Below are positions 9,743 through 37,506 of a stretch of DNA of 64,000 bases, in pieces. Source of the DNA: a virus; the IMG/VR virus record IMGVR_UViG_3300021168_000494, positions 3,304-67,303 of that record. One strand, 5' to 3'. The position numbers were made by a program, and so were the translations under genes. Under the pieces are notes generated by a model. It was not told where the DNA came from, searched no databases, and saw only the letters and a program-made list of their open reading frames with translations. Numbering within the stretch: position 1 is the first letter of the stretch; each line of letters opens with the position of its first letter.

Positions 9743-10070
9743 CATGCTCGGCGTCGCCGCAGCCACTGCGCTGCCGTCCGAAGTGTTTCCGTTCCGCAAA
9801 ATATTTCTTCCAGCGGCTCCTACTGTGGCGTCGACCATGATCATCGAAGGCCCCTGGATTGATCCGGGCCGCGTCGACATACTGGACTGGCAGTACTGGG
9901 GCAGAACGTTCATTCCTGATGAATTCATCGAAGAACTTGTCCCATATCTCACTGGTGTCTGCCCTGTGCTGACAGCCGATGGCCGAAACCGAACGGCGAC
10001 GGCTTTCGTACTGCACCAAGAGGACGCCAAGAGGAAGGTGGACCATTTCCTTCAGAGATTTATTTCGTAG
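9717..10070 (+). CDS. Protein with a twin-arginine-like N-terminus
   Basis: MDRRNFL followed by a hydrophobic stretch; GGAG SD. Confidence 0.6.
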   Translation: MDRRNFLRNMLGVAAATALPSEVFPFRKIFLPAAPTVASTMIIEGPWIDPGRVDILDWQYWGRTFIPDEFIEELVPYLTGVCPVLTADGRNRTATAFVLHQEDAKRKVDHFLQRFIS

Positions 10071-10545
10071 TCGGCACGTTGCCTGGCTCGAAAACGAGAT
10101 ACTCGCGATGACGCTGCGGCACGCAGCTGCGGACCTACAGACGCAGGAAAAGCACGAGAAAGAGATCGCCCGGATCGAATCCCTCAACCAAATCATCCAG
10201 TACGAGGCGATGCGCGAACTCGCCGAAGTGAAAAAGGCTCACGCAGTGGAGTTGTTCCGTGTTATAGAAGAGAACCAGAGATTGCGAGATGATGCCAAGC
10301 GTTTGCAGCTTCTCGCGATCCCGGCACTAAAGAACGTCGAGCTCGAACCAGATAAGACCCCGCCTCCATCGCCGCAGGAAGGTGTTTACCTCGGCACTCC
10401 CTGGCAGCGGGTCCTTGCAAGAGAACTAGAAGCGCAGGAGCGTGCGGCGAAGAACAAATTTACGCGCCCAGTTCCTGCAGAGGGAGCATCCGAACCTGCC
10501 AACGCCACACAAGGGAACAACGCCCCAAGCGACGTGCCATCCTGA
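10045..10545 (+). CDS. Coiled-coil protein, probable ATT start
   Basis: GGAAGGTGG SD, then ACC-ATT in frame; heptad-rich sequence. Confidence 0.6.
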   Translation: MSFRDLFRSRHVAWLENEILAMTLRHAAADLQTQEKHEKEIARIESLNQIIQYEAMRELAEVKKAHAVELFRVIEENQRLRDDAKRLQLLAIPALKNVELEPDKTPPPSPQEGVYLGTPWQRVLARELEAQERAAKNKFTRPVPAEGASEPANATQGNNAPSDVPS

Positions 10546-10969
10546 AAGGAAAATGCGGGCGAAAGGCCTTTGTCGAGCGTGTTACGAGAAGGAACGCCGT
10601 GGGCCAGGGAAATACCGCATAGATGGCAGGAGCAAAGTGCCGGGCTATAAACAAAAGTGGCATCGAACTCCCAAAGGGAAAGAGTCCAATCGAAATGCTT
10701 ACACAAAATATCGCTTCGGCATTTCGAGAGACGAATACGAGAGGCTTCTCAAAGCATCCGATGGGCTGTGTGGCATTTGTAAACGCCCAATGGATATGAG
10801 CAAAGCCGGGAGACATTCGGGGGAAGGGCCAGTTCTTGATCACGGGCACGAAGAGAGAAAGATTCGAGAATTTACACACCGTCGATGCAATGCGGCCATC
10901 GGGCTCTTGAAAGAAGACCCAGTGACCTGCAGGTTGGCGGCTGAGTACATCGAGAAACACAGGAGGTAA
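10496..10969 (+). CDS. Endonuclease VII-like (His-Me finger) homing endonuclease
   Basis: 'YGI....Y..L.......CGIC...VLDH.H......R....CN.AIG' pattern. The start is uncertain: CTG 10496 after GGGAG, or an internal ATG near 10553. Confidence 0.75.
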   Translation: MPTPHKGTTPQATCHPERKMRAKGLCRACYEKERRGPGKYRIDGRSKVPGYKQKWHRTPKGKESNRNAYTKYRFGISRDEYERLLKASDGLCGICKRPMDMSKAGRHSGEGPVLDHGHEERKIREFTHRRCNAAIGLLKEDPVTCRLAAEYIEKHRR

Positions 10970-10970
10970 T

Positions 10971-11453
10971 ATGGCTGTTCTTGCGAAGGACGGAAGTCGC
11001 CACCACTCGGCGAGCCGAGCAAGCCTTCATGACAAGTTGACCGAGAAAAAAGGCCCCGCAACCGTAACCCCGATGAAGAAACCCGAGGGCAAGGATCCGG
11101 CAGCGGCTGCAAAGGCGCCGGCGATCGCCCAGGATCATCCACACATGCCCGGGCCGCACCAAATCCCGACGCAGACTCCGATCGCGGAGCACGTCGAGGA
11201 ACACGGGCCGGCAACCCACACGTTCCACATGCACGACCACGGTGGCGAAGGAAAGCATCATGTCACCTCTCATCACGGAGCTATGGGCGAGAACATGCAC
11301 CACTCCGAACACGAATCCCACGAAGCGGCTCACGATCACATGGCCGTGGCGATGGGCGCCGAATCACCGGATCACGAACAGGGCGAACCACACGACTACG
11401 AAGCGCCCGAAGCGTCGGCGGCCGGCGAACGAATCCCTGGCCTAGCGAGTTAA
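10971..11453 (+). CDS. Histidine-rich low-complexity protein
   Basis: AGGAGG SD; dense H-x-H runs in the C-terminal half. Confidence 0.75.
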   Translation: MAVLAKDGSRHHSASRASLHDKLTEKKGPATVTPMKKPEGKDPAAAAKAPAIAQDHPHMPGPHQIPTQTPIAEHVEEHGPATHTFHMHDHGGEGKHHVTSHHGAMGENMHHSEHESHEAAHDHMAVAMGAESPDHEQGEPHDYEAPEASAAGERIPGLAS

Positions 11454-11457
11454 CGCC

Positions 11458-11625
11458 ATTCCCTGGACACGGCGGCAGGTGAAGTTTCTCTTCTCGTCCG
11501 GTTCGCCGCTCACCGGATCGCAAAAAGAAAAGATGCATGGGGAGTTACACGCTAACCCTGCGATGGGTCACATGAAGAGAGGCTCTTCGCGGATGGCCGA
11601 AGCGTTCAGAAAGGCACGTCGATGA
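11458..11625 (+). CDS. Small basic protein (55 aa), probable ATT start
   Basis: Open frame ATT-CCC-TGG gives (M)PWTRRQVKFLFSSGSPL...ELHANP; its TGA overlaps the ATG at 11622. Confidence 0.6.
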   Translation: MPWTRRQVKFLFSSGSPLTGSQKEKMHGELHANPAMGHMKRGSSRMAEAFRKARR

Positions 11626-11948
11626 ACGAGAACGAAGTAGTTGAGGTCAACGCCAACGGATCCTTCATCACTCCGCAGATTGCATCGTTCGCAGCTACGC
11701 TGTGGAATGACAAGAATCCAAAAAACGGCGTCGCGTACATCGCCCTAGGAGAAACACAACTTCGGAAACTCGAATCTCTCTACATGGGACCAGAAGGCCC
11801 AAGGAGACCGGACGTTGAGATCTCGAAGCACGCGCAAACCCTAGCTCACATCCCGATCCGCGTCGACAAATTGGTACCTGACACCGAGATTCACATGCGC
11901 GATTCGCAGGATCGGCTTGTGGCCAAAATCGTCACGTTGGAGAAGTGA
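11622..11948 (+). CDS. Hypothetical protein
   Basis: AAAGG SD; ATGA overlap. Confidence 0.6.
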   Translation: MNENEVVEVNANGSFITPQIASFAATLWNDKNPKNGVAYIALGETQLRKLESLYMGPEGPRRPDVEISKHAQTLAHIPIRVDKLVPDTEIHMRDSQDRLVAKIVTLEK

Positions 11949-11960
11949 TGTAGGAGGGTG

Positions 11961-12599
11961 ATGGTGGGTGGGAAAACGCTCGTTCATATCGCGCCGGCAG
12001 CTGGCGTACAGAGATGGGCGCTTGCGTTTGTCGGGGGAGGGGACACGAGCAACCAGCCGAAAAGCTGCTTCGTTTGTCCCTTCATGTATCTCAATCAGAA
12101 ACGCTGTCAGATTCACGGGCCAAAGATCGTCATCGACAGGCTGAAGAAGAGTGGAGATGTTTACACCCCAGTTTGCGTCTACCAGCGAGGCGGGACCCCT
12201 TTGGTCGTCGCCGACGATCAGGTCGTCTACAACGCTACAACGCTCGGGGCCGAGGCAGCGGACCAGACCGGATTGGAGTGGTCGAAAACACCTACGGGAA
12301 CGAACTGCGGTGGATTCCGGGAAGGGGCCATCTGCGAATGGTTTATAACGGAGGACGAGAAGGGGAAGGACGGAATTTGCGGCCTCATGTCCAAGGATCA
12401 GGACGAGACCAGTAACGCAATGAGCGATCACAAGGGCCGCGACGTCGATTGGGACGACTGCTGCGACGGACACGAGGGAGAACACATGGAGTGGCGGGAA
12501 GCACAGAAGATTCTCGGTGGCACGACGGAAAAACAGAAACCGTCAAGACTAGCTAAGGCTTTCAAAGCAGAGAAGCTCAAGGAAAGTGCCGCAACTTAA
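11961..12599 (+). CDS. Cys-rich, possibly metal/Fe-S-binding protein
   Basis: AGGAGG SD; two Cys clusters, 'CFVCPF...CQIH...C' and 'CGG....CEWF...CG...DCC'. Confidence 0.65.
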   Translation: MVGGKTLVHIAPAAGVQRWALAFVGGGDTSNQPKSCFVCPFMYLNQKRCQIHGPKIVIDRLKKSGDVYTPVCVYQRGGTPLVVADDQVVYNATTLGAEAADQTGLEWSKTPTGTNCGGFREGAICEWFITEDEKGKDGICGLMSKDQDETSNAMSDHKGRDVDWDDCCDGHEGEHMEWREAQKILGGTTEKQKPSRLAKAFKAEKLKESAAT

Positions 12600-12616
12600 A
12601 AACAGGAGGGAATAGG

Positions 12617-12877
12617 GTGGCTCAAATGACCAAGACTATTATAAATAATGCTCCCGCCTCTTTACAGGCGTTCCAGATTCTTCGCATTGGTGCAGTGGAT
12701 CCCGCCACGTCGCAGCGCCAGCTATTTTTGTCGAACGGAAGTCACGTGCAGATTTCATCGAAGCAAGCCACTCAGTTTTTGCCCAGTGTTGGTGACTACT
12801 ACGTCGTGCCGTCCGAGGGCCACCCGTACTGTGTGGCCCAGTCGACCTTCCTGCAGAACTACGTGGTCGGATCTTAG
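12617..12877 (+). CDS. Hypothetical protein ('P.VGDYYV...G..Y.....F' motif)
   Basis: AGGAGGG SD. Confidence 0.6.
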   Translation: MAQMTKTIINNAPASLQAFQILRIGAVDPATSQRQLFLSNGSHVQISSKQATQFLPSVGDYYVVPSEGHPYCVAQSTFLQNYVVGS

Positions 12878-12887
12878 GAGGTACATC

Positions 12888-13085
12888 ATGGCGAACAGAT
12901 GGATGCAAGCCGAAGCGAGCCGCGAAAAACACGCCGGCACAAAAGGTTCTTTCACGCGGATCGCCCACTCACACGGTCGCTCGACGCACGCCGAAGCCGA
13001 GCACGATAAGCACAAACCGGGAAAGATCGGCCAGAAAGCCAGGATGGCGCTGGCATTTGCGAGTGCGCGTCACCACGGGAGCTAA
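12888..13085 (+). CDS. Small basic His-rich protein
   Basis: AGGAGG SD; 'KG.F...A..HG.S.......K..G....AR.AL' pattern typical of pre-portal small proteins. Confidence 0.65.
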   Translation: MANRWMQAEASREKHAGTKGSFTRIAHSHGRSTHAEAEHDKHKPGKIGQKARMALAFASARHHGS

Positions 13086-13094
13086 AACAATATC

Positions 13095-15737
13095 GTGGCC
13101 TTCAAAACCGAACCAGCCGTCGCCGAGGAAGAGACAGCAACACAAGGTGGCGCCGATACGAAAGATAACGACGAACCAAAGTACGGAATAGGTGTCCTCG
13201 CCGGCCTCGAGTGGTCGCCAGTCCCGAACGCTGAGTTAACAACCGAGCAGAAGAATCTCATCCAGACTATCGTCAAGAAACATGAGAAGCGCGATTATCC
13301 AGCGCGTTTGATCGAAGTGATCGCCGCTTGGGAAGCGGCTCTCTTCTACCGCGGCTTCCAATTCCTGATCCCGCAACGTGGTGGGGGATGGGTGATCCCG
13401 GGCGAATCGAGCGGATACGGTCCTTCGATGCAGATGGATCTTGCCCTCCTGCCGACGAACATCTATTCGGCGCGCGCACAAATGATCATCGCGGCCCTTA
13501 CCCGCACCGTCCCTGGCGTGCGATTCGCCCCGCAACGCGCAGACTCAGACGCGCAAATAACGACGGCCGAATCCGCAGAGAAATTCGTGAAGGTCATCGC
13601 TCGGAACAACGATTTGATCCAGATCCAGACTGACGCGGCCAGGTACCTGTGGACAGACGGACGTTTTCTGTACTGGTCGCGCTTCGTGAAAGACGGTCAG
13701 AGATTTGGATGGGAAGAGGACGACGAGCCCGATGATTTGGTCCCTGAAAACGAGCCAGGCCCATCACCTACGCCAGTCGAGGGTGAGGCTGCTGCGGCAA
13801 CACCGGAATCTGCTGAGACTGCGCAGGAAGGTACACCGTCAGCGGAAGGCCAGGGATCGCCGCTAGAGACTTCCGAAATTTCCCCCTCAGATGAGGAGGA
13901 AAAACAGGAAGGCGAAGAAGGCACCGGCGAGGAAGAGGGTGAAGAGGAAGAAGAGCCGGTAAAGCGCACGCCCCGCGGTCAAGAGGTCCGCACAGCACAC
14001 GGAAAACTGGAAGTGAAACTCTCGCCGATGAGTGCGAATGAACTCAGCGAGGTCGATGTTCTCCTTTTCGAAGGTGAAGTGGATGAATCAAGAGCGCGCG
14101 GCATGTGCCCGTGGGTCGCCAAGGATATCAAAGGAGCGACGAATGCTGCCACGGCCTCGGGAGAGATCGCGCGGCTTGCTCGCCAGAACGTAAAACTCGG
14201 GATGCAGTCGACCTATGTGACTAGCGATTCGATCGCCGCCGACGTCACTATGAAGCGCGTGTGGATGCGCCCAAGCGTCCTGATGGAAATCGCGGATGAA
14301 GTAAAGCGCGACGAACTGATCGCCCTTTTCCCGAACGGCTGTTACGTCTGCTATGCCGGCGAAACGTTTTGTTTCGCGCGCAACGAGTCGATGGATGACG
14401 CCTGGGCGTTGGGACAAGCCTACTCTGGCGACGGCCAGAACAGGAACGCGATGGGCACGTCGACGATGCCGATCCAGAAGCGCCTGAACAACTGGCTCGA
14501 CCTGATGAACGATATCTTCGTGCGGACCATTCCGAAGAAGTGGATGGACTCAAGGGCGTTCGCAGTCGAGGCGATCCGGCAGCAGACGAATGTGCCCGGG
14601 GATATCGGATCCTTCAAACGGCAACCAGGCACGCCGGTCGCTGAATTGATCTTCGTCGAACCAGCCGTCAATCCACCCGCCAACCTTTCGGAGTTCATCA
14701 AGGAATATTCGGGGCCTCTCGCGGAACTTCTCTCCGGGGCGTATCCAGCGCTTGCAGGAGGGGACGTCGGCACAGCTGATAGCGGGGTCGCGATCGCCAC
14801 TCAGCGCGATTCCGCGCTTGGCCGGCTGGCGCCAACCTGGCACCAGATGAAGAACGCCGAAGCGACGTCCATGAAACAGCTTGTGCGGTGGGCCGCGAAG
14901 TGCCGCGACAAGTCGATCAATGAACGAGTGCCTGGCGGTGAAACGATTTCACTCGAGATCAACGACCTCAAAGGCAACATCATGGTGTTTGCCGAGAGCG
15001 ACGAGAACTTCCCGGAGACGTACACGCAGCGTAAGAACGCGCTGATGACAGTCTTCAATGACGCTGCGAAAAATCCCCAGTTGCTCGAGGTCTTCTTTAA
15101 CGCTGCAAACCTCGAACTCCTGCAGAACATGTTCGGGATGGCTGATTTCTACATTCCGCAGGTGGCCGCTCGTAATAAACAGCTTGGCGAGATCGAGGTG
15201 CTGCTGAAGAGCACGCCTGTGCCGAATCCCCAAGTGGAACTGCTCAAACAGAAAATCGCGCAGATGAAAGAGGCCGGCGTGGATCCGCAGGAACTCGCAG
15301 CGGCCGAGCAACAGGTCGAAGCGATGCCGCAGCAGGTGAGTTCGATCGAGATTGACGCAAAGCGCGAGGACAACGACACCGAGGCTCTGACTTGCTGGCA
15401 GTACATCAACAGCCCGGAGGGCCGCGGCGACAAGCAAAAGAACAAAGACGGATTCGATAACGTGTGCCTCCACTACGATGCGCACGTCGCAGCCGCCGAG
15501 GCAAAGGCTGCGGCTGCTGGCCAGCCCGGGAAACCCCCGAGTGTCAGCATCGGATACAAGGACGTCGCCGCACTCGACAAAGGCGCGTCTGATCAGATTT
15601 TGCAAAAGGCTGGCGTTACTCCGACTGCTGGTGCACAGGCCCCGCCTGCTGTTCCAGCACCAACCGGAGAAAAGCCGGTCGCAGCGCCGATCCCGACAGG
15701 AATGCCGGAAGGCGCTGGTGGTCCACCAAAACACTAA
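13095..15737 (+). CDS. Portal protein (P22 gp1-like size) with an acidic insert
   Basis: 880 aa between terminase and scaffold; 'ADSGVAIATQRD.A..RL' portal-like motif; Q/A/P-rich C-terminus. Confidence 0.8.
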   Translation: MAFKTEPAVAEEETATQGGADTKDNDEPKYGIGVLAGLEWSPVPNAELTTEQKNLIQTIVKKHEKRDYPARLIEVIAAWEAALFYRGFQFLIPQRGGGWVIPGESSGYGPSMQMDLALLPTNIYSARAQMIIAALTRTVPGVRFAPQRADSDAQITTAESAEKFVKVIARNNDLIQIQTDAARYLWTDGRFLYWSRFVKDGQRFGWEEDDEPDDLVPENEPGPSPTPVEGEAAAATPESAETAQEGTPSAEGQGSPLETSEISPSDEEEKQEGEEGTGEEEGEEEEEPVKRTPRGQEVRTAHGKLEVKLSPMSANELSEVDVLLFEGEVDESRARGMCPWVAKDIKGATNAATASGEIARLARQNVKLGMQSTYVTSDSIAADVTMKRVWMRPSVLMEIADEVKRDELIALFPNGCYVCYAGETFCFARNESMDDAWALGQAYSGDGQNRNAMGTSTMPIQKRLNNWLDLMNDIFVRTIPKKWMDSRAFAVEAIRQQTNVPGDIGSFKRQPGTPVAELIFVEPAVNPPANLSEFIKEYSGPLAELLSGAYPALAGGDVGTADSGVAIATQRDSALGRLAPTWHQMKNAEATSMKQLVRWAAKCRDKSINERVPGGETISLEINDLKGNIMVFAESDENFPETYTQRKNALMTVFNDAAKNPQLLEVFFNAANLELLQNMFGMADFYIPQVAARNKQLGEIEVLLKSTPVPNPQVELLKQKIAQMKEAGVDPQELAAAEQQVEAMPQQVSSIEIDAKREDNDTEALTCWQYINSPEGRGDKQKNKDGFDNVCLHYDAHVAAAEAKAAAAGQPGKPPSVSIGYKDVAALDKGASDQILQKAGVTPTAGAQAPPAVPAPTGEKPVAAPIPTGMPEGAGGPPKH

Positions 15738-15758
15738 GACAAATATCGGGAGGAACGT

Positions 15759-17234
15759 ATGGAAGAGATACTGAACGGAGCGGGAACGGCGGTCGCAGAT
15801 GGCGCGGCAGCTGGTGGTGATGCTGGTGGTGCGGGAACTGGGGGCGGCGCTGGAGAAGGTGAAGGCGCTGGAGAGGGCGCTGGAGAAAAACCTGGAACTG
15901 GTGAAGGTGGAGCGGGAGGAGATGGCGCCGGCGCTGGAGAAGGAGCCGGTGAAGGAGAAGGCGAAGGAGCCGGCGAGATCGAGGGCGCTGCAGCTGGCGA
16001 AGGAGAAGGCGAAGGCGAGGGCGACGAATTTGAAAGTGCGGATGGCCGCAAGGTCGACTCCAAAACCCGTGAAGCGCTGGCCGCACTCAAGAAAGTAAAT
16101 CCTGCGGCCGCGAAGCAACTCTTCGCGGATCATGGGCGAGCTCAGGCCATCGTCAAGGAAGTCGGCGCGCAAAATCTCAGCGATGCCGTAAACAAGGTGC
16201 GCCAGATCACCGCCACGCTCGAATCGGTTGGTGGCGAGGAAGGCTTGGAAGGGCTGCAAAGCGAGGCCGAGGACTACCGGAACGAAATCAAACAGTTTTC
16301 GGAAGGCGATCCTGCTCTCCTGAATCAGCTTCACGAAGCCAATCCCGACGCGTTCGCCACGTCCATCACGAACGGCCTCGCACTGATCATGGAGAAATCG
16401 CCGGCGAAATTGGACGCCGTTCTCCTGCCAGCACTTGTGCCGCGGCTACAGAAGGCCGGGATGTTTGACTCCGTCGATCAGTTGGCTGCGCTGATCAAAG
16501 AGGGCAAAGGCCAGGAAGCCTATGATCTAACGGCGAAAATCAAGGCATGGCTCGACAACGCGAAACATCTGTCGGAAAAAGCCGCCACGACTCGCAACAA
16601 TGTGGACCCGAGGAAAGAAGCCCAAGACAAACGGGATTCCGAACTCACGGCGAAAGAACAGAAGATCTACGAGGGCCAGATCGGCAGCGACGTGAACAAG
16701 TTGAACAACACTGCAACTGCACGCGTCGTCGAACCGTTCTTTAAAGACCTGAAGCTAAAGACGGAAGGTCGGCGCGAATTCATCAACGCGCTGAACTCGC
16801 GGATTTGGAAGACCATGCGCGAGGACAAAGCGTTCCAGCGCGCTGGCAACGCCCTGAAGGCCAAAGGTGATGCTGGCCGCACTGCGCGATTTGTGAGTGC
16901 CAAATTCGTCGAACTCCTCCCCGAGCACTTCCGGGCACTGCGGGACGCCATGTACCCTAATTACACCCGCGGTGGGACAAAGGTGGCCCCGGGCGCAGGA
17001 AAGGCCAACGGTGCGGCAGGCGGGGTCGCTGGCGGGGGTAACGGGACAGGTGGGGGTGCAGGGGCCGGGAAAGCGCCGGCCGGCGTCACCCTCGTCACCA
17101 AAATGCCGAAACCCGAGGATATCGACTGGAGCAAGACGACCGAGGAAATGTATCACGTTGGCCGTGGGAACGGCGAAGCGATCCTGAAGAGTGGGAAAAG
17201 ACTTCGCTGGAATTGGGCGACCGTCGAACGGTAG
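15759..17234 (+). CDS. Probable capsid scaffolding protein
   Basis: Lies between portal and capsid; G/E/A-repeat N-terminus, helical core, Gly-rich linker. Confidence 0.7.
   Translation: MEEILNGAGTAVADGAAAGGDAGGAGTGGGAGEGEGAGEGAGEKPGTGEGGAGGDGAGAGEGAGEGEGEGAGEIEGAAAGEGEGEGEGDEFESADGRKVDSKTREALAALKKVNPAAAKQLFADHGRAQAIVKEVGAQNLSDAVNKVRQITATLESVGGEEGLEGLQSEAEDYRNEIKQFSEGDPALLNQLHEANPDAFATSITNGLALIMEKSPAKLDAVLLPALVPRLQKAGMFDSVDQLAALIKEGKGQEAYDLTAKIKAWLDNAKHLSEKAATTRNNVDPRKEAQDKRDSELTAKEQKIYEGQIGSDVNKLNNTATARVVEPFFKDLKLKTEGRREFINALNSRIWKTMREDKAFQRAGNALKAKGDAGRTARFVSAKFVELLPEHFRALRDAMYPNYTRGGTKVAPGAGKANGAAGGVAGGGNGTGGGAGAGKAPAGVTLVTKMPKPEDIDWSKTTEEMYHVGRGNGEAILKSGKRLRWNWATVER
15775..16025 (+). repeat. 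Degenerate coding repeat (GEGAG/GEGEG)
   Basis: Repeated ggcgaa/ggcgct/ggagaa units. Confidence 0.7.
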
Positions 17235-17274
17235 AATCAGGCCCGGAGAGTCAGTGGTAGGTTCTCCGAGAGGG

Positions 17275-17345
17275 ATGGAGCACGTTGCCCCTTCTGATGC
17301 CTTTGGTGCTGTGAGCATCGCGTCAGATCACCGTGCTCCATTTTT
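17275..17345 (+). terminator. Long bulged hairpin with a T-tract (terminator or RNase III-type site)
   Basis: ATGGAGCACG...CGTGCTCCAT 10-bp closing stem; inner TCTGATGC/GCGTCAGA stem; followed by TTTT. Confidence 0.55.
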
Positions 17346-17397: not shown

Positions 17398-17871
17398 ATG
17401 TCGGAACACGAACATAACGAAAAATCCCGACTGACAAAGATCGAAGAGATTCTCGAGTGTCTGCATGAAGACGTGAAGCGGATGCTCCGATGGATCGCTC
17501 TAAAGAAGATCGACTTTATTCAAGTTGGAGGCAGTATGAATTTCTCAATCGTTCGAGGCGCAGCGGGAACTTTCACTGCAGTCTTGACGCCAGCCAATGG
17601 CACCCAGGCACCGAGTACTCTTCCTGCATGGGCCGCAGATGATACGACCATCGTTCTCAATCCGAGCGCTGACGGGCTGTCTTGTGAAGTCACGGCGCCG
17701 CTCGGTGGAACGGTTACGGCGTTCCATCTCAGTATCAAAGCGACGTCGTCCGACCCGAGTGTTGGAGTAAGCGGAGTGGTCAACGCGAATCACGCGATTA
17801 CGATCACCGAGCCGACTCCTCCACCGCCGACGCCGTTGCAGAGCATCGACTTCGTCCAGTCCGCTGGCTAA
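17398..17871 (+). CDS. Ig-like beta protein, possible head decoration; alternative start at 17536
   Basis: Thr/Ala/Val-rich beta pattern 'P.W..DD......PSADG.S..VT'; strong GGAGG SD at the internal ATG 17536. Confidence 0.6.
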   Translation: MSEHEHNEKSRLTKIEEILECLHEDVKRMLRWIALKKIDFIQVGGSMNFSIVRGAAGTFTAVLTPANGTQAPSTLPAWAADDTTIVLNPSADGLSCEVTAPLGGTVTAFHLSIKATSSDPSVGVSGVVNANHAITITEPTPPPPTPLQSIDFVQSAG

Positions 17872-17887
17872 AGTCTCGTCGCTCACC

Positions 17888-17926
17888 AATCCCCGGGCGC
17901 GCACTTCCACGGTGCCCGGGGATTTT
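17888..17926 (+). terminator. Intrinsic terminator-like hairpin
   Basis: AATCCCCGGGCGC...GTGCCCGGGGATT followed by TT. Confidence 0.6.
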
Positions 17927-17933
17927 CCAGTTT

Positions 17934-18106
17934 GCTCCGGTAGCTCAGTGGTGCAGAGTCCGGTCACATGCGTCCCGCTTCGGCTGGCTGCAACGGCGAT
18001 CAGACTCCGCTAGAGCACCTCGTATTTAACGAGGGGGTCGTGGCGGGTCGCCACCGCGCGCAGGGTCGCAAGGCTCGGCGAGGTTCAAAACCCACCCGGA
18101 GCGCCA
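17934..18106 (+). ncRNA. tRNA-like RNA (UUU anticodon position, encoded CCA) with 58-nt D-loop and 39-nt T-stem insertions
   Basis: Acceptor GCTCCGG/CCGGAGC + G + CCA; D stem GCTC/GAGC; anticodon stem CCTCG/CGAGG with loop TATTTAA; variable loop GGGTC; T loop TTCAAAA with stem GTGGG/CCCAC. Removing both inserts gives 76 nt. Confidence 0.8.
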
Positions 18107-18110
18107 TTTC

Positions 18111-18152
18111 TCCGCTAATTTTATCAGCCCACGAACTGATAAAATTAGCGGA
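18111..18152. repeat. Perfect 17-bp AT-rich inverted repeat
   Basis: TCCGCTAATTTTATCAG-cccacgaa-CTGATAAAATTAGCGGA. Confidence 0.85.
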
Positions 18153-18168
18153 CGTTCCACGTGGAACG
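18153..18168. promoter_or_regulatory. parS: parS-like palindrome
   Basis: CGTTCCACGTGGAACG matches the chromosomal parS consensus GTTtCACGTGaAAC (GTTCCACGTGGAAC variant). Confidence 0.7.
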
Positions 18169-18189
18169 CTCCCTCAATTCAAAAAAACT

Positions 18190-18218
18190 TTGACAATAGG
18201 CAAGGGCGGGTGTACTTT
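18190..18218 (+). promoter_or_regulatory. Sigma70-like promoter for the capsid operon
   Basis: A-tract, TTGACA, 17-nt spacer, TACTTT. Confidence 0.7.
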
Positions 18219-18222
18219 CACT

Positions 18223-18385
18223 CTCAACAGAGCGCACCCTGCGAGCGGGATAAACTAGACGCCACTCTGCATTGTTCCAAAGCACATCGGGGGATCGACA
18301 AATCTGCGTGCTTGACTGCGCGTGGATCGCCAACGTGCTCGTGCGGGGAGACGGCCACTGTTGAGCCAATGCAGAGGTTCCCACT
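18223..18385 (+). promoter_or_regulatory. Structured 5' leader of the major capsid gene
   Basis: CTCAACAG(18223)/CTGTTGAG(18358) and CTCTGCATTG(18265)/CAATGCAGAG(18367) perfect pairings; the second covers the SD. Confidence 0.55.
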
Positions 18386-19723
18386 ATGGCAAATCCTTTG
18401 GCAGAAGCGGCCGTCGAGGCCGTAGAGCTAGAGAATTTTGCGAAAGGGATCCCGGACCTGGTCTACAAAGGCCACACGGTCTACAACTTCATCAAGAAAA
18501 AGAGCAAGACGTACCCGACCTCCGTCACCACGCAAGCCGGTGGCGTTTCGCGTCCGTCGTTCCGCATTCCTGTCCGCATGCAGTCCGGTGCGGCCATCTT
18601 CCAGGCGACCGGCAACGGTGACGCCCTGGGACGCGGGACTGGCTCCTTGTGGGTTGCGGGAGACCTTTCGCCGATCGGTTTGTTTGCCGGCTGCGAGATC
18701 ACGTATCTTGCCCGGATTGCGACACAAGGCCCGAAGCGCAGCCTGATCAGCTTGCGCGCCGAAGAGTTGAAGAACTCCTTCAACCAATTCATGCAGGGGC
18801 TGGATGCTCAGTTCCTGAGTGACGGTTCCGGTGCCATCCTTCAGATCCCTTCCACTGCGACGATCAATAACAACACGCTCGGCGGGTCCAACCCGTCCTC
18901 GATCGTGGGCCTCGGTGGCCAGGCAAATCAATTCCAGGAACAGCAGGTGGTTCAGTTCTTCCCAACCGAAGGCGGGTCGGCACGCACCACGCCGGCGACT
19001 GCGACGGTTTCCTATGTCGATGGCGCGAACGACACGGTGTACTTTTCGACGGCTCTGCCGACGAACACAGCCACTGGCGATTTCGTCATGATTCAGGGGA
19101 GCACGGGAGCGCTGAACTCGGGCCTTGCCGGGATTTACACCTATCAGGTGAACTCGAACACCGGCACGATCCTGAACCTTTCCCGGTCGACCTATCCTGG
19201 CCAGCTATCGACCCCGAACATCAACAAGAACGGGGCCGCCATCAACATGACCGACGCCTATAAGGCCGAAATTCTAATCGGCCGCGGACTCGGTGCGGAC
19301 AACGAAGCTGTGGCTGACTTCGAATGGATCTGCGGACCCGACCAGGAACTGGCCGTGACGCAGCTTTACACGAACGTCCTGTCGCAGAACTACGTGCCGC
19401 CCGGGGACAAGGCGCTGGACATGGTGAAAAAGCACATGTCTCCAACCTACGGTGGACGCACGCTCAACGTGAGCTACACCGCGAAGGCGGGGCGCCTCGA
19501 CGCTCTTTGCCCGGAGACTTGGGGGATCATCGAGACGGTCGAGCCTTCGCTGTACGATTTCGGAGACGGTGTCACCACGATGCCGATCCCGGACTACGTC
19601 GGCCAGGGCAGCTACTTGACCTCTTCGATTTTCTTCTACAACGCGTTCCTGAACCTTTTCAACTCGAACATGAAGGCCGCCGTGTTCATCTCGAACGCTG
19701 CGCAGCCTCCACTGACGAGTTAA
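18386..19723 (+). CDS. Major capsid protein
   Basis: 445 aa after the scaffold, with its own promoter and strongly biased codons; HK97-fold-like 'DG.G.I' and insertion domain. Confidence 0.8.
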   Translation: MANPLAEAAVEAVELENFAKGIPDLVYKGHTVYNFIKKKSKTYPTSVTTQAGGVSRPSFRIPVRMQSGAAIFQATGNGDALGRGTGSLWVAGDLSPIGLFAGCEITYLARIATQGPKRSLISLRAEELKNSFNQFMQGLDAQFLSDGSGAILQIPSTATINNNTLGGSNPSSIVGLGGQANQFQEQQVVQFFPTEGGSARTTPATATVSYVDGANDTVYFSTALPTNTATGDFVMIQGSTGALNSGLAGIYTYQVNSNTGTILNLSRSTYPGQLSTPNINKNGAAINMTDAYKAEILIGRGLGADNEAVADFEWICGPDQELAVTQLYTNVLSQNYVPPGDKALDMVKKHMSPTYGGRTLNVSYTAKAGRLDALCPETWGIIETVEPSLYDFGDGVTTMPIPDYVGQGSYLTSSIFFYNAFLNLFNSNMKAAVFISNAAQPPLTS

Positions 19724-19742
19724 ACCCTCAACCAACGCGCGT

Positions 19743-19777
19743 GATCGGGGGAGGAGTTGCGCCCTCCCCATCATTTC
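19743..19777 (+). terminator. Hairpin after the capsid gene
   Basis: GGGGGAGG...CCCTCCCC stem. Confidence 0.45.
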
Positions 19778-19795
19778 AAATCGGGGGAAATCATC

Positions 19796-20203
19796 ATGGC
19801 AATGGATAAGACGGATTCGACCGGTGTTTTGGATTCGAGTGCTCCAGTTGTGAAAGACCTTCGCCGGCTCGATGAGACCGGGGAACGCAAGGAAAAGTGG
19901 GAGATTGTTCCGCGGCACGAATGGGTTCTCATCCGTCAGAATCGTTCCGAGGAAGAGAAAACCGAAGGCGGGATCGTCAAGCCTGGCGAGGACTTCTTCC
20001 TGATGGATAAGGGGAAGCCGAAATCCCAACGCGGAGCGGTCGTCGCCGTATCAGAGAAGATCACGGACCTCCAGGCTGGGGACTTCGTGATCTTCACCAA
20101 CTTCCCGATCGACCTCGAGGATATCGAGGAATTGACCGGTGACCCGGAACTGAAGCTGGTCCGAGATGAAGAAGTGTACGCACGCGTGAAGCGATGCACA
20201 TAA
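19796..20203 (+). CDS. groES: GroES-like co-chaperonin
   Basis: 'IVP..EWVLI.....EEKTEGGIV.P....K...G.VVAV......L.AGD.V.F...LVR.EEV.A'. Confidence 0.8.
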   Translation: MAMDKTDSTGVLDSSAPVVKDLRRLDETGERKEKWEIVPRHEWVLIRQNRSEEEKTEGGIVKPGEDFFLMDKGKPKSQRGAVVAVSEKITDLQAGDFVIFTNFPIDLEDIEELTGDPELKLVRDEEVYARVKRCT

Positions 20204-20964: not shown

Positions 20965-20982
20965 AAATATCGGGAGGAAAGA

Positions 20983-21861
20983 ATGGCAACATCAGCGGTA
21001 CCACTCACTCACAGGTTGGCGCAGGATCAGCGAACGGCGAAGAAGAACGCCCTTGCGATGCAGGAGCGGCAGAACCACGGCGAGAACATCATCGAAGCGC
21101 AGGATCAGGGTCGCGAGCCTGGCTACGTGATTTATGTGTACAACATCCTCGACCGTGAATACGTGATCACTCAGCCACCGCTTTTCCCGGGCTTTGTGAT
21201 CCCGGCATGCAAACCGGGACAGAAATTCTCTCACACGGTCCTGCCACCGTTCGTGAAAGAGCCGTACATGAAGCCAGGGTCGACGGAGTACTACTACAAA
21301 AACGTCGACGGCCGGAAAGCAGCGACAAGTCTCCTGAATCCGGGCGCGTTTCCCGGAACCAATTGGGACAGCCAGATTCAGAACTGGGATTCCGAGGAGA
21401 CTGCGATCACCGGATCTGCGAACAACCTGAATCTCTACGGTGCGTGGTGGTCACTCACGAAGCCGGAAGAGACGGAGAAATTGGACGCTGAAATCAAGAT
21501 TTTCAGGGCGCGGGTGGGTACCACGATGAACGCTCTCGTGAAACAGGCCGAGCAACTTGCTGCAGCCGGCGACCTCAAGAGCATTTCTCCGGTCATGCAT
21601 TTTGCGATGGACTATCTCGGTAAACAAGCTCCGTGGCACATGGCTGCCTACCACATGATCTCTTGCCCGAACTGCGGCGAGCCGGTCAAGGAAGGCATCG
21701 CGTACCACAGGAATTCTTTTGGCGAACGTTGCATCGTCGACGAAGTGAAGTACAAAGCGATGGTGGCCAGACAGAGGGAGCTCGATGCTCCCGCGGCAGA
21801 GCCAGACGATGAGCCGGTTGGCGCCGGGGCGAAGAAGAGCAAGCCCCGAAAGGCGTCGTAG
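20983..21861 (+). CDS. Hypothetical protein with a C-terminal 'CPNCG......H.....C' zinc ribbon
   Basis: GGGAGG SD; zinc ribbon. Confidence 0.7.
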   Translation: MATSAVPLTHRLAQDQRTAKKNALAMQERQNHGENIIEAQDQGREPGYVIYVYNILDREYVITQPPLFPGFVIPACKPGQKFSHTVLPPFVKEPYMKPGSTEYYYKNVDGRKAATSLLNPGAFPGTNWDSQIQNWDSEETAITGSANNLNLYGAWWSLTKPEETEKLDAEIKIFRARVGTTMNALVKQAEQLAAAGDLKSISPVMHFAMDYLGKQAPWHMAAYHMISCPNCGEPVKEGIAYHRNSFGERCIVDEVKYKAMVARQRELDAPAAEPDDEPVGAGAKKSKPRKAS

Positions 21862-21948
21862 ATCTTCTAGGAGGGGGGTCCCGTATCCCAACGTACCCCC
21901 GATTCGTGGGGCGCGTCCCTCCTCCTAGTCGCAAGTTGTGAGGGGAAT

Positions 21949-22770
21949 ATGACGAACGTTCAGCCGAGCGCATTTCCGGTTATCGAGGACGTCACATCAC
22001 TGTGGCGATCTCTCGTGAACGACACGTTCCCTGGCCTTCAGGGCACACAGGGGCGCATCGCTACTGATAACGCCCCTTTCACCCTGCCTTTCCTGAATTC
22101 AGCAATCCGCAATCTCTCGCGCCGGCTTCGAAACGAAGGTGTGACCTTTCCGATCAAGGATGGCGTGGTCCTTGGGAATATCCCCGCAGTCGTCAAAGCG
22201 GACACCAGTGTTTTTATCAATATCGGTTTCAACGGAACGAACAACGGCACCACCAACAGTGCGACGCCGTTCCTTCCTCCCGATTGCATGCAGGTGTACC
22301 TCGTGCGCCAGCGCGTTACGGGATCCGGCCTTCCATTCGTGGTCGTTCCCGAAGCGGCCGGCGGCTTGCAGTCTGGATTTCAAAATCAGTGGCTCGGGCA
22401 GTGGGAGTGGCGCCAGTACGCGATCTGGTTGAACGGATCCCTGCAACCGCAGGACCTCATGATCCGGTATCTCTCCGGGCAGCCACCGATCAACGTGCCG
22501 GCCGCCAATTTCGCGAGCACGCCCATTTTCATTCTCGATTCCGCAGACGCACTGGCTTATTTGATGGCCAGCGACTACGGATCTGCGCGCGGGGCAAACC
22601 CCGCGGTGATCGCACGAGTCGAAAAAAAGGCCGATGACTTCATCGACGAGATGGCGCTTGAGTACATTCGCCGTTCACAGACGCAAAATTTCCAGCGGCT
22701 TTCCTATCAGGGCGGTGGTTCGAACGTCCAGGGTGACACGGGTCTTGGATCGACGGGGACACAAACATAA
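21949..22770 (+). CDS. Probable head-tail adaptor
   Basis: Position; 'R.LVND...FLNSA.R.L...L' and 'LP.DC' adaptor-like patterns. Confidence 0.6.
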   Translation: MTNVQPSAFPVIEDVTSLWRSLVNDTFPGLQGTQGRIATDNAPFTLPFLNSAIRNLSRRLRNEGVTFPIKDGVVLGNIPAVVKADTSVFINIGFNGTNNGTTNSATPFLPPDCMQVYLVRQRVTGSGLPFVVVPEAAGGLQSGFQNQWLGQWEWRQYAIWLNGSLQPQDLMIRYLSGQPPINVPAANFASTPIFILDSADALAYLMASDYGSARGANPAVIARVEKKADDFIDEMALEYIRRSQTQNFQRLSYQGGGSNVQGDTGLGSTGTQT

Positions 22771-23790
22771 ATGTCGACCTTCTTCCGCATTCAGGGATCG
22801 CTTAACTCTGCTCAGGGGCCAGCCCTCGACGGAGTGATCATCTACCTTTGCACGCAACCGGCAGTTACCTCGACGATCCCTCCATCACCGCTCGCGACGA
22901 TCTATTCCGACAACGCCGGCGCGAATCCGATCAATCAATCGGTTGCACCGGTCCAGACCGATGGCCTCGGAAACTGGTTCGCTTACGCGGCCACAGGCAC
23001 TTACACGATCGTATTCTTCGATCCGATTGGCCGGATACCCGTCACAATATTTCCAGATCAGCAAGTCGTGTCTCCTGGCGGCGGATCCGTCACGAGTATC
23101 GGGCTCACGATGCCGGCAGAGTTCACCGTTGCCGGATCGCCCGTCGCGAGCAACGGCACAATCGCAGTCACCAAGGCGAATGAGAACGCAAATCTCGTCT
23201 ATGCCGGCCCTTCTTCCGGTGGTGCTGCAGCGCCGACCTTCCGAGCCCTTGTTGCTGCTGATTTGCCATCTGGTGGGGGAACAGTCACGAGCGTGACGCT
23301 TGGAGTAAGTGCCGGCGCACTGTTCACGGCGTCCATCACTGGCACGAATCCGATCACCGGTGCCGGCACGTTCACGCTGAACCTGAATTTTGCGAATCAG
23401 AATCCAAACACGGTGCTGGCCGGCCCCGCGAGTGGTGCTGCCGGCGCCGTCACGGCCCGAACACTGGTGGCAGCAGATATTTTTGTTCCTGTGCCGGTCG
23501 CGTTCAGTGCAACTCCTGTATTCAACGCTGGCCTAGGGGCTTGGCCGGTTTTCACGATGACGCTCACCGGTGCTGTGACCTCGAGCAGCGTAACGAATGC
23601 GACGGCTGGTCAACACGCGACGTTCATCATCACGCAGGACGGGACAGGTGGCCATCCTTTCGCGTGGCCACCAAACTTCAAGGATCCACCGGCCGTTGCG
23701 CCCGATGCTACACTTGTAAGCGTTGTGATTTTTGTTTACGACGGCACGAATTGGCGACCGACCGGCCCCGGCTTCACGATGGCCGGATAA
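22771..23790 (+). CDS. Virion structural/fibre protein
   Basis: Tailspike head-binding-like N-terminus 'NP....P.QTDG.GN...YA'; two 'N.V.AGP.SG.A...TFR.LVAAD' repeats; 'TQDGTGG...WP' C-terminal domain. Confidence 0.7.
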   Translation: MSTFFRIQGSLNSAQGPALDGVIIYLCTQPAVTSTIPPSPLATIYSDNAGANPINQSVAPVQTDGLGNWFAYAATGTYTIVFFDPIGRIPVTIFPDQQVVSPGGGSVTSIGLTMPAEFTVAGSPVASNGTIAVTKANENANLVYAGPSSGGAAAPTFRALVAADLPSGGGTVTSVTLGVSAGALFTASITGTNPITGAGTFTLNLNFANQNPNTVLAGPASGAAGAVTARTLVAADIFVPVPVAFSATPVFNAGLGAWPVFTMTLTGAVTSSSVTNATAGQHATFIITQDGTGGHPFAWPPNFKDPPAVAPDATLVSVVIFVYDGTNWRPTGPGFTMAG

Positions 23791-23862
23791 TTTTCACTCG
23801 CGCTTCGACTGGCGAGGAAGTACGCCACCTGGACTCCAGGGTTGGAAACAAAGGAGTAAATC

Positions 23863-24240
23863 ATGGCACTAGCAACACTCTCCGTGAAGCCTGGCTTCAC
23901 CCAATCGAACGATCAGCGAACGCAAAGTTTTTGGGGAACGCTTCTCGTCAGCGCGCCGACCGACACCTATCCGAACGGGGGTTTTTTGCTCGACAGCGTG
24001 CTACTTGCGGCGCTTCTCCCGAATAGCAACTCGGGCATGATCGGATTCCAGGCGCAGGGTTCCGGGTCTGGCTACATCTATCAGCGTATTCCGTCCACCG
24101 GTCGGCTGATGGTGCTGCAGATTCCTCCGAACGGATCGCTCACGACCGCGGCACCGCTGCAGCAATACCCCTCGCAGCAGGTGTCGGGCATTTGGGCCGA
24201 CGTGATTGGCTTCGAAGCCGTCTACTTGAGAAACGCATAG
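23863..24240 (+). CDS. Small virion protein
   Basis: AAGGAG SD; 'TYP.GG' motif seen in decoration-type proteins. Confidence 0.6.
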   Translation: MALATLSVKPGFTQSNDQRTQSFWGTLLVSAPTDTYPNGGFLLDSVLLAALLPNSNSGMIGFQAQGSGSGYIYQRIPSTGRLMVLQIPPNGSLTTAAPLQQYPSQQVSGIWADVIGFEAVYLRNA

Positions 24241-24253
24241 TAGAATAAGGCCC

Positions 24254-24820
24254 ATGTTCATCTACGTTGTCACGAACGATGTGAACAGCAAATGTTACGT
24301 GGGCCTTCACTTCGGAAGCGATTTGCGAAAGAGATGGTTAGAACATCTTTCTGCCGCTCGCATCGGCTTACGAAGTGCTCTCCATTGCGCGATGCGGAAA
24401 CACGGCGTCCACAAATTCCACATCAGTTCGCTGTGGTCGGGAACGCTCTCAACAGAAAACCTAAAGTTATTAGAACGCTTTTTCATTAAGTCGCTCAAAA
24501 CCAAATCTCCGGTCGGCTACAACACGACAGATGGTGGAGATGGAACTATCGGTTATCGTCACAGTGAAGAGGAAAAGCGAATTCGCAGCGAGAGGATGAA
24601 AGGAAATATCTCGCTGTGGACTGGAAGAAAACGATCTCCTGAAATCGGCAGAAGAATCAGCACCGCAAAACGAGGAAAGAAACGAGGACCGCAATCTCCT
24701 GAATGGAGGGCTAAAATATCTGCCTCCCTGATCGGGAACAAGCGTTCTCTGGGACACAAATGGTCTGCAGACTCGATTGCAAAGCGAACAGCAACGCGAG
24801 CCGAGAAGGTGAACCATTAA
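24254..24820 (+). CDS. GIY-YIG homing endonuclease with NUMOD3-like repeats
   Basis: 'FIY...N..N.K.YVG', 'RW..H', 'GYN.T.GGDG', 'HSEE.K...S'. Confidence 0.88.
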   Translation: MFIYVVTNDVNSKCYVGLHFGSDLRKRWLEHLSAARIGLRSALHCAMRKHGVHKFHISSLWSGTLSTENLKLLERFFIKSLKTKSPVGYNTTDGGDGTIGYRHSEEEKRIRSERMKGNISLWTGRKRSPEIGRRISTAKRGKKRGPQSPEWRAKISASLIGNKRSLGHKWSADSIAKRTATRAEKVNH

Positions 24821-27800
24821 CAATGCCGATACACCTCTAGCTCCCGTTCCGCTCGAACTGCTCGGGGGTCTCTATACCGAAGCCGCGCCTGAGTCTCTTC
24901 CCCTAGGCGCCAGCCCCATCGTGATTAATTGCGATTTTATTTTGGGATCAGTGCTCCTGCGGCCGGGGAAGCAGAGCGCATTCGTTTTCGGAAATTCCTT
25001 CATAAAGCAGAACACCAAGTTCGTCACGTCGATCCCGGGCGCGAACGCGCCGAATGAAACTCCGTGGTCCAATCCGACAAATGCGGAACTCGATACTCCG
25101 GGCACTTACGCCGAAGTGTCGCTGATGGGAGCGGGAGGCTTACCAAACTCGCAAGTCTTGGACTGCATAAATTACGCGATGAACATCCCTGCAACGGTTC
25201 AGGTCCTCGGTCTGCAGGTAGAGATCGACGGTTTGCAATCCGGTCTGCAGGCAGGCGCGCAGATTGCTGTCACAGTAGGAACGACCACGATCATTGCACA
25301 GCTTGGCACTTTGTTCGGCACAACCGATATCGGCACTCCTCTCAGTAATTGGGGGCTCACGCTCACGCCGGCACTCCTGAACGATCCAAATTTCCCCGTG
25401 AAGATCGTTGGCAGCGCACCTTTAATTCCGAATATCGGCACCGGCACAACGCAACTCGATGCTTTCGCAGGTGCCGCAGCTGGTGGCAGCGAATCGTCAA
25501 CGGTGGTGATATCGGCCAACCCGAGCGTCCCGAAGGATTGGGCTCTTCTCGCTACCGCGCAAAACGGAAACAAGTCGACGCAGAATCCCGGGATGTGGAG
25601 CATCCTGAGTCTCACGATCAGCGGAAATGTTCTGACGATCACCGTAAGTACGCCCTGCTCAATCGCTCCGGGCCAGACGATGACGATCGGCAACCAAAGT
25701 GGGGCGACGGCTTTTCTGAACGGGCAGACGGTCGTGGTCGGAACAAACAGCGGAACTGTGCTCACCGCGCCATTTGTACACGCCAATGCGGCGAACAACG
25801 TTGGATTTATCTCCGCGAATGGCTGGACGGGGCTCGGATCCAACGGGAGTGCCGGCGCACTCATGATGCAGCAATTCCCGTCCGCTGCCCCCGTGAATTT
25901 CAGTGGTGCACTTTCCGGGACGTTCTCCTGGGCCGCTGTCATGGGGCTTTTCGCAACGAACGGAATCCCTGCTCTTGTCCAATCTGCCAGCGGAAGTGGT
26001 GCGACGAGCAAACCACAAACCGAAGGCTTCCCGAATGCCACACAGGCTGGCAATTCACTATTTTTTGTCCTCCAAGCGAGTCTTATACCGGATGCAGTGC
26101 CGATACTCGGTTCGACATGCACGGACACCGCAGGGAACCTCTACACGCTCGTCGGGATGAGTCAAGGACCAATCGACGTGTCCAATTTTGGCTCGCTCGT
26201 CCTCATCTATTTCGCGCAAAACACTGTCTCGCTCCCGAACACAGGGCATATTACGTTGTCGTTAACGGACACCTTTGGTGCAGCTTCGGTTGCCTCTGCG
26301 ACGTGGACCGTCCTCGAAATCTCGAATCTGGCGAACGTGCCAGCGCAGATCCCAACGGTGTTTGATATCGCAGCCGTGAAGCTGAAGGCGTGGGTCAGTC
26401 CGAATCCTCCACCGAGTTTCAATTACATCAAGACGTTCGCGGAAACGGGCGGCGAAGTTCTCACTCTGGCTCTTGGCAGCAACGGGATTTTCTACCAGGA
26501 AGACGCGATCAATAACCCAACGGTTTTGTTCCCGGTGTATTCCGCGATTGAGCCGAACACTTTTGCTCAGTCGGCGACGGTCGACGACCGCGAATTCATC
26601 GCGCTATCGAATCTGCTGAACGGCACTGACATGCCGCGGACCTACACCCCTCCGAACTTTGACCGGCTCTCGCAGGTCGGTCCCGGTGCGCCACCATCGG
26701 CATCTTCTTCTTCGGCCGCGAGCAATATTCTCTCGATCACGCAGCCCCCGGTGCAAAGCGATCCTGTAGAACCTGGCCACCTTTCTGGAATCCTGTGGTC
26801 ATCTGGACCTGGAAGTACGGTCGCTGGCAACGTCCTCACGGTCTATTACGCCGGCACGAACAACCTAGCCGTGGCTGATCCGAATCTCGTGATCGGCGCT
26901 GGCGTGCAACTCGCGGCAATCAATTCAAGCCAATTCGGTGGCCAAACCGTGAACGGCGACTACATCATCACTGGAACTGGCCAGGGTGTTCCTCCCGGCG
27001 CCGCTCAGAGTCGCTGGTATTTCACGGTGATCATGCCGACGTCGCAGTCGATCAATCAGGCGAACCACATCGAGTCTCACGCACCCACGGGTACATACCA
27101 GGTGACGACCGCCACTCTGACGGCTGCCGCACAGGTACCGAATTTGGAAGTTGGTGGGACACTGCAGATCGCCGGCACCGGAGGCGCACCGACTGCCGGC
27201 TACGACGGAAGCTGGACGGTGAATGCGACGCCGAACGCTTCGCAGCTTCTGATCACGAGCACTTCACTGAACGGCAACGTAGCCACTTATGGATACACGT
27301 TGATCAGTGGCAGCGCCCCTGTTGCCGGCCAGCTTGTGACAATCACCGGGACGCTGAACGGAAACGGAATTTTCAATCAGAGCAACCAGGGGATCGCGTC
27401 GGCATCCCCGGGGTCCTTCTCGATCAATCTCTTCGGGAATAATGTGAACTCGGCGGCCGAAAACGGGTCGGGTGTGATCTTCGGCACGATATTCCAGTTC
27501 GACCCACTCGTGATCGTCGGCAACAAGACTGGTGGAAATCTGGTGACCTCGGGGATCATCGGCGCTGGCGTGCGAAAGGTGTGCTACTCCTTCCTCACGA
27601 GGAACGGATTCATGACGCAACCGTCACCGATCACGACATTTGACGTGAACTCCGGGGCCTCGGCGATCACAATCTCCGATTTGCTGCCAGGACCGTCGAA
27701 CGTGATTGCGCGCGTGATCCATCTGACAGGTGCGAATGGTGGGAATTTCTACAACATCCCTCAACCGGTCGTCGTGAACAATAACGGAGTGAAAGTCACG

Positions 27801-37483: not shown

Positions 37484-37506
37484 AATCGACGAATCAGGAT
37501 TTCCAC

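Follow-up and report, generated by a model that had tools for sequence, protein, structure and literature searches.

Initiation at AUU is an established if inefficient route into bacterial genes, best known from infC and pcnB of Escherichia coli. In E. coli, AUU directs 6-8 times less reporter synthesis than AUG or GUG, and coupling at the natural infC junction (UAA GGU AUU) doubles the yield in a reporter, according to PMC3592434. Behind extended Shine-Dalgarno (SD) motifs, AUU and AUA reach ~10% of AUG in Staphylococcus aureus, as given in PMC13009471. Lower values, 1-2% of AUG, are stated for AUA, AUC, AUU and CUG in an E. coli system in a preprint (bioRxiv 10.1101/063800), which also reports that AUC and ACG starts yield an N-terminal Met. 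Here we describe a 64,000-nucleotide (nt) stretch of viral DNA, hereafter the window, comprising bases 3304-67303 of the 67,303-bp IMG/VR record IMGVR_UViG_3300021168_000494. In it, three genes of a virion module have ATT, at 10045, 11458 and 24816, where a canonical start codon would be expected. A limited literature search turned up no publication describing repeated AUU starts among the virion genes of a phage.

We propose that the three ATT codons are genuine translation start codons used as weak starts, and on comparative sequence evidence we assign this reading a probability of about 0.8. A sequence-only reading of the window had suggested that three genes start at ATT; all three codons are present at the coordinates and in the contexts it gave, and all three stand at the homologous start position. 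The first codons of these genes, up to the next canonical start, are under purifying selection, with synonymous change outnumbering non-synonymous change. We compared all stop-to-stop open reading frames (ORFs) of the record with five related whole records. Out of ~73 conserved ORF families, a canonical start was missing from the consensus start column in the three ATT genes only; the canonical starts at such columns (n=45) were ATG in 32, GTG in 8 and TTG in 5. The five relatives contain two ATT starts in G002 (in the giant gene and the small gene described below) and one ATC in G004. Other codons flagged by the census (ATT 17389, CTG 39985, an ATT in the G002 homologue of 44646-45719, an ATA in G004 and ACG 55659) were rejected, as ATG or GTG lay 1-3 codons away or the alignments were poor. 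No further open 5' extensions stood out in the record.

The strength of each ribosome-binding site (RBS) was taken as its duplex energy with the anti-SD and ranked against the 45 canonical gene starts of the genome. The RBS at 10045 is stronger than all 45 (45/45), and the one at 24816 falls in the top fifth, with 9/45 canonical starts as strong or stronger. The canonical alternatives to the ATT starts have SD energies of -1.4 to -5.0 kcal/mol. The 13-mer AAGGTGRACCATT has two matches, at the 10045 and 24816 sites only, although a chance figure for this would be circular, the pattern having been derived from its own two sites.

The largest of the three genes provides the most extensive comparison. 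Its features are as follows.

24816..29672, plus strand: gene for a 1,618-amino-acid (aa) virion-module protein, with a predicted ATT start placed from homologue N-termini
24805..24812, plus strand: SD-like GAAGGTGA, separated from the ATT by ACC (3 nt); -8.7 kcal/mol
24254..24820, plus strand: GIY-YIG / NUMOD3 homing-endonuclease gene (Pfam GIY-YIG 5.5e-7, NUMOD3 6.7e-6)

The ATT occupies 24816-18. An in-frame TGA lies at 24810-12, the first in-frame ATG, GTG or TTG is GTG 24921, and between the TGA and the conserved NNADTP there are only ACC and the ATT. The RBS sits in the 3' end of the homing-endonuclease gene, whose TAA (24818-20) overlaps the ATT by one base (ATTAA, 24816-20). A protein search identified 23 relatives besides the window's own truncated call, with N-termini MNNADTPLAP that are co-linear with I-NNADTPLAP in the window. 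A scan of viral contigs for this gene gave 28 loci, of which 26 were displayed, L007 and L025 not reaching the N-terminus. We dropped five (L010, L020, L023, L028 and L029) whose extrapolated start fell in unalignable sequence, leaving 21 loci. Merging near-duplicates (L003/L004, L013/L014, L015/L022, L011/L019 and L021/L027) reduced these to 17 lineages including the window.

The codon aligned with the start was ATG in 2 lineages, GTG in 2, TTG in 4, ATT in 2 (the window and L003/L004), ATC in 5 and ACG in 2, and thus was ATG or a single mismatch from ATG in 17/17. Every aligned Leu codon was TTG (4), every Val GTG (2) and every Thr ACG (2), for which we estimate a rough p of 1.7e-5 if this were a sense codon following the gene's own codon usage. 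This set of codons is characteristic of a start codon rather than a sense codon. An in-frame stop lies 3-30 nt upstream of the aligned codon in 20/21 loci. Invariant residues from G18 to P34 precede residue 36, the first canonical start of the window protein, and over codons 2-35 the window differs by 11 synonymous and 3 non-synonymous changes from L002 and by 21 and 10, respectively, from L016. In the protein tree the window pairs with L002 (TTG), and the next branch is L003/L004 (ATT). The ATC and ACG lineages form one clade, except L018 (L026 is not in the tree), and ATC and ACG alternate even between near-identical proteins (L015 versus L016).

A second ATT begins a small gene further upstream in the window.

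11458..11625, plus strand: gene for a conserved basic protein of 55 aa, with a predicted ATT start
10971..11453, plus strand: upstream gene, with ATG at the consensus start column in 6/6 genomes

The ATT (11458-60) follows the TAA of the upstream gene (11451-53) by 4 nt, as TAA CGCC ATT, and the TGA of the 55-aa gene (11623-25) overlaps the ATG of the next gene at 11622. The frame opens five codons before the ATT; only R-V-N-A-I separates the in-frame stop from the conserved PWT, and the next canonical codon is GTG 11479. A scan for this gene gave 19 loci; with L076 dropped for an N-terminus that did not align, they represent 15 distinct lineages including the window. The aligned start codon is ATG in 8, GTG in 3, TTG in 1 and ATT in 3 (the window, L066-68 and L073). 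P-W-T directly after the start is conserved, and the six codons for PWTRRQ show 5 differences between the window and L058, all of them synonymous.

The third gene lies at the upstream end of the same cluster.

10045..10545, plus strand: gene for a coiled-coil-like protein of 166 aa, with a probable ATT start and a rival in-frame ATG at 9979
10031..10041, plus strand: SD-like GAGGAAGGTGG, separated from the ATT by ACC (3 nt); -12.0 kcal/mol
9717..10070, plus strand: upstream gene for a 117-aa protein with a TAT-signal-like N-terminus; its last 26 nt are shared with the ATT gene

The stop of the upstream gene is 23 nt downstream of the ATT. Homologues of the 10045 gene occur at 13/19 loci of the 55-aa gene scan and represent 9 distinct lineages, in which we counted the start position back from a conserved W-L-E. 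The homologue starts exactly at the ATT-aligned codon in 4/9 lineages (L059/60, L061, L064 and L065, the last with GTG), one codon off it in 2/9 (L066-68 and L073) and a few codons downstream in 3/9 (L058, L062/63 and L071). The closest relative reads gaaaggaaggtcaatc-GTG-tccttgaga against agaggaaggtggacc-ATT-tccttcaga in the window, with GGAAGGT common to both. The conserved SFRDLFRSRH..WLE (FR.RH..WLE motif) lies upstream of ATG 10108, and a start there would remove the motif.

Several observations weigh against ATT initiation. The RBS at 11458 is weak (-3.0 kcal/mol), with 32/45 canonical starts as strong or stronger. Among relatives of the giant gene, L008, L011, L015, L016 and L019 carry ATC or ACG without an SD, only 4 nt beyond a strong hairpin with its U-run; in E. 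coli, ACG initiates very weakly. Canonical codons occur close to the non-canonical start of several relatives: downstream of it in L009 (TTG, by 7 codons) and L018 (GTG, by 11 codons), and upstream of it, in frame, in L026 (TTGs). The lineages are related, so their counts are not counts of independent events. RNA-library contigs of run X2 reach none of the three ATT sites, and a prophage and host search of species-representative genomes found no relative. Lastly, at 24816 and 11458 the interval from the in-frame stop to the conserved N-terminus is free of ATG, GTG and TTG, but at 10045 there is an in-frame ATG, at 9979, 22 codons upstream of the ATT, which gene callers would pick. An upstream in-frame canonical codon is likewise found in two relatives, L065 and L058, and the closest relative has an upstream in-frame ATG.

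ATG 9979 makes 10045 the only site where a canonical start is a plausible alternative. The sequence-only reading described the ATT and its context correctly here but overlooked ATG 9979, which is in frame and upstream of the conserved N-terminus. The ATG has almost no SD (-1.4 kcal/mol), and the 22-codon extension that it would add is not conserved. The stretch encodes the C-terminus of the upstream gene and is conserved in the frame of that gene, not in the 10045 frame. We therefore regard initiation at ATG 9979 as unlikely, though it keeps a real chance, and the ATT as the likely start of the 10045 gene.

Applied to all three genes, the same alternative holds that translation begins at the nearest canonical codons (ATG 9979 or 10108, GTG 11479 and GTG 24921) and that the ATTs are Ile codons or part of an untranslated leader. 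Public gene calls do use GTG 24921 (P0004), and the SD of GTG 11479 is slightly better than that of ATT 11458 (-5.0 versus -3.0 kcal/mol). Against this, the stretches that would be skipped are conserved as protein and change mostly synonymously, and homologues begin at the ATT-aligned codon and not at 24921, 11479 or ~10108. In relatives, the residue at the 11479 position is either Val, encoded by GTG, GTT or GTA, or Phe, and the codon thus behaves as a sense codon. We consider canonical initiation at all three genes improbable.

Alternatively, the ATT starts might form a regulatory switch, in which the fidelity of initiation factor IF3 is lowered late by the host state or a phage factor and the AUU genes are jointly turned up. 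IF3 represses non-canonical starts, as stated in PMC2268962, and four non-canonical starts, counting the probable CTG start described below, are many for a 67-kb genome. A link to IF3 activity, possibly with the phage's own CspA or a tRNA-like RNA, had also been raised from the sequence; it found no backing. ARAGORN, run on the window and on the whole 67.3-kb record, detected neither tRNA nor tmRNA, Rfam gave nothing at the gathering threshold, and we found no tRNA-like gene or other candidate factor in the genome. A cold-shock-domain gene is present at 52210-52404 (Pfam CSD, E 1.5e-27), but we found no connection between these starts and either that gene or IF3. The genes concerned do not form a coherent set, one being a mobile HNH gene, and relatives exchange ATT for ATG, GTG or TTG freely, which simple tuning fits better. 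A coordinated switch is accordingly very improbable.

It is more improbable still that the ATT codons are assembly errors or start-codon knock-outs of a defective genome. The contig derives from a metagenome, and its sole full-length read support may share the same sample. Nevertheless, a Logan contig of run X1 (58,387 nt, depth ~15), which may derive from the source sample and so is an independent assembly but not independent DNA, shows 0 other letters and 0 gaps against 9900-25100, ruling out an assembler artefact across 15.2 kb; there is neither an ATG nor an indel at any ATT site. ATT is also found at the aligned starts in separate contigs of other records, in L003 and L004 for the giant gene and in L066-68 and L073 for the 55-aa gene. 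Knock-outs would require three start-codon losses in one dominant genotype, with the frame perfect each time. Runs X2 (RNA) and X3 (DNA) contain identical fragments of the capsid region and other parts, none spanning an ATT site. Sequence error at these codons is unlikely.

There is next to no chance that the proteins lack starts of their own and arise by frameshift or read-through from the upstream ORF (in one version through ATG 24823): each of the three genes does overlap or abut an upstream ORF, and a T6 run immediately precedes the start in some relatives, but the upstream neighbours vary (a homing endonuclease in the window, a terminator hairpin elsewhere), the reading frame is closed by stops right before the start, no fusion is required in homologues that begin at canonical codons, and the ATG at +7 that corresponds to 24823 is missing in 8/8 other lineages with a non-canonical start. 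The out-of-frame ATG 24823, which had been raised as a possible join to the tail frame, opens an ORF of 5 codons and is a by-product of the conserved Asn-Asn-Ala codons. For L011 and L016 we considered and rejected a frameshift that starts from an ATG within the hairpin loop, as opposite shifts would be required and L008 has no such ATG.

Returning to the three ATT codons as weak starts, we predict that the initiator tRNA would read AUU with a third-position mismatch, such that translation of each gene proceeds at a lower efficiency than AUG would give. At 10045 and 24816 a strong and well-spaced RBS would support initiation. The nearby upstream stop would permit translational coupling at 11458, across the 4-nt spacer, and at 24816, through the ATTAA overlap. 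For the giant protein, a weak start would be the norm of the family, the start codon wandering among ATG, GTG, TTG, ATT, ATC and ACG. The HNH gene at 10496 would probably start at CTG in like manner.

The proposal that AUU serves low stoichiometry gained indirect support, for the giant protein only. ATG is used in 2/17 lineages of this gene compared with 32/45 gene starts genome-wide (binomial p 6e-7 under independence of the lineages, which does not hold, and 9e-3 when eight independent lineages are assumed). A 64-78-nt gap precedes the gene in most relatives, and a GC-rich hairpin of ~11-16 bp was found there in 10/11 relatives folded, with a short U-run after it in most. The position of the gene behind a terminator-like hairpin in most relatives would fit selection for low output. 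The rarity of ATG and the upstream hairpin both fit a low-copy giant product, and this comparative evidence suggests that the virion contains few copies of the giant protein. Its description as a tail protein was not confirmed, as neither it nor the other two ATT-gene proteins had a sequence match in Pfam, PHROG or the PDB. The ESM Atlas has rows that name Acidobacteriota and a crAss muzzle domain, with scores of 0.78-0.89, which serve as leads only.

A more far-reaching proposal is that selection across the clade favors near-cognate initiation of the giant virion protein and, together with the terminator, forms a two-layer throttle on a low-copy component. We consider this doubtful. If true, the subclade with AUC or ACG and no SD would point to a way of initiating, or to a host environment, in which such codons are tolerated far better than in E. 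coli, for example a host lineage with relaxed IF3 discrimination, or initiation driven by U-rich leaders.

In the window, the terminator-like spacer of relatives is replaced by the homing-endonuclease gene. None of the 21 relatives examined has that gene at this position; L015 and L022 alone carry a copy, 32% identical, ~680 nt further upstream. No group I intron or other RNA element around it matched Rfam at the gathering threshold. The slot, between a conserved 125-aa gene and the giant gene, is a hotspot of inserted genes: L003/L004 and L006 contain an unrelated Cys-rich ORF of 160-168 aa on the minus strand (L003 9502-10008; L006 5784-6266), and most relatives have merely the 64-78-nt spacer.

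A fourth non-canonical start is probable in the gene between the 10045 gene and the gene upstream of the 55-aa gene.

10496..10969, plus strand: HNH / endonuclease VII-family gene, with a probable CTG start and a rival GTG at 10442 (Pfam Endonuclease_7, E 8.4e-11)

The possible CTG start at 10496 had also been raised from the sequence, and two HNH homologues start exactly there: P0029 (70% identity in its alignment) and L077 (42%) have M at the CTG-aligned codon, and the L077 ORF opens six codons before it. GAGGGAG at 10480-86, 9 nt upstream of the CTG, has an energy of -7.0 kcal/mol, compared with -3.4 kcal/mol for GTG 10442. The downstream ATG 10553 was rejected as a sufficient start, since the motif ATCHP.RK lies upstream of it and the homologue M falls at the CTG-aligned codon. 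This motif does not vary when the window protein is aligned with P0029 and P0030, and L077 has it too. From these alignments the gene probably starts at CTG 10496, and the in-frame GTG 10442 remains a rival. The five related records lack a clear counterpart of the gene, the sole match being 25% identical, in G002. It looks like a free-standing mobile gene between two conserved genes, adjoining two ATT genes.

CC occupies positions -2/-1 in 5/6 ATT starts (window 10043-44, 11456-57 and 24814-15, and the small genes of L066 and of L073 at 2999-3000); the giant gene of L003 has AA. The three small-gene cases may share ancestry. The N-terminus of the 117-aa protein encoded upstream of 10045, MDRRNFLRNMLGVAAATALP, resembles a twin-arginine signal (Pfam TAT_signal, E 0.002, below the cut-off) and is conserved in the closest relative.

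The record is complete by CheckV, the GC content of the window is 57%, and the runs that contain its sequence are soil metagenomes. None of the deposited phages is similar to the window at the DNA level. A single-protein scan of viral contigs gave no relatives, but an alignment-based scan did find them. The virion-module block that contains the ATT genes includes the large terminase.

7572-9176: large terminase gene

The block also has several small genes, the HNH/endonuclease VII gene, large conserved genes that have no family matches, a Cpn10-like gene, the GIY-YIG/NUMOD3 gene and the 1,618-codon ORF. The Cpn10-like gene (19757-20203) stands just after a 445-aa gene (18386-19723) and encodes a 148-aa protein that matches the Cpn10 (GroES) family (E 3.1e-7) and may be a phage co-chaperonin. 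Contigs of X2, a soil metatranscriptome run, are identical to 17455-19796, which includes the 445-aa gene, and to 23857-24221, with possible DNA carry-over. Elsewhere, a sugar-modifying gene cluster (37357-44817) encodes glycosyltransferase-like domains, an NAD-dependent epimerase/dehydratase and a family 2 glycosyltransferase, and a RecT gene lies at 58882-60261 on the minus strand.

Standard gene finders shorten the ATT-start proteins described here. In public gene calls (P0004) and the ESM Atlas the giant protein appears only from residue 36, and public copies of the window protein therefore lose the 35 most conserved N-terminal residues. The giant gene of L003 is called 12 residues short, and the 55-aa gene loses its conserved PWT motif. 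A single start codon that drifts through six near-cognates across a phage family would be a natural example of the start codon as an expression dial.

The closest likeness is to E. coli infC and pcnB, where AUU stands in place of the expected canonical start, an RBS precedes it and output is below that from AUG. The infC AUU, 3 nt after the upstream stop (UAA GGU AUU, PMC3592434), resembles TAA CGCC ATT at 11458. In contrast to infC and pcnB, which are host regulators, the genes described here belong to a phage virion module and have no evident autoregulatory logic, and their start codon is not fixed but turns over among six near-cognates across relatives. At 10045 and 24816 the combination of a weak start with an unusually strong RBS recalls S. 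aureus cvfC1 (AUU) and ccpN and infC (AUA), as presented in PMC13009471. Unlike those genes, the 55-aa gene has no extended SD at 11458, nor do the ATC and ACG starts of several relatives, and the setting is a 57%-GC phage rather than a Firmicute. Overall, no new mechanism is revealed, the mechanism being that known from infC and pcnB; what is new is the setting, in virion-module genes of a high-GC soil phage, the density, with three ATT starts and one probable CTG start in 67 kb, and the turnover through six near-cognates across the family.

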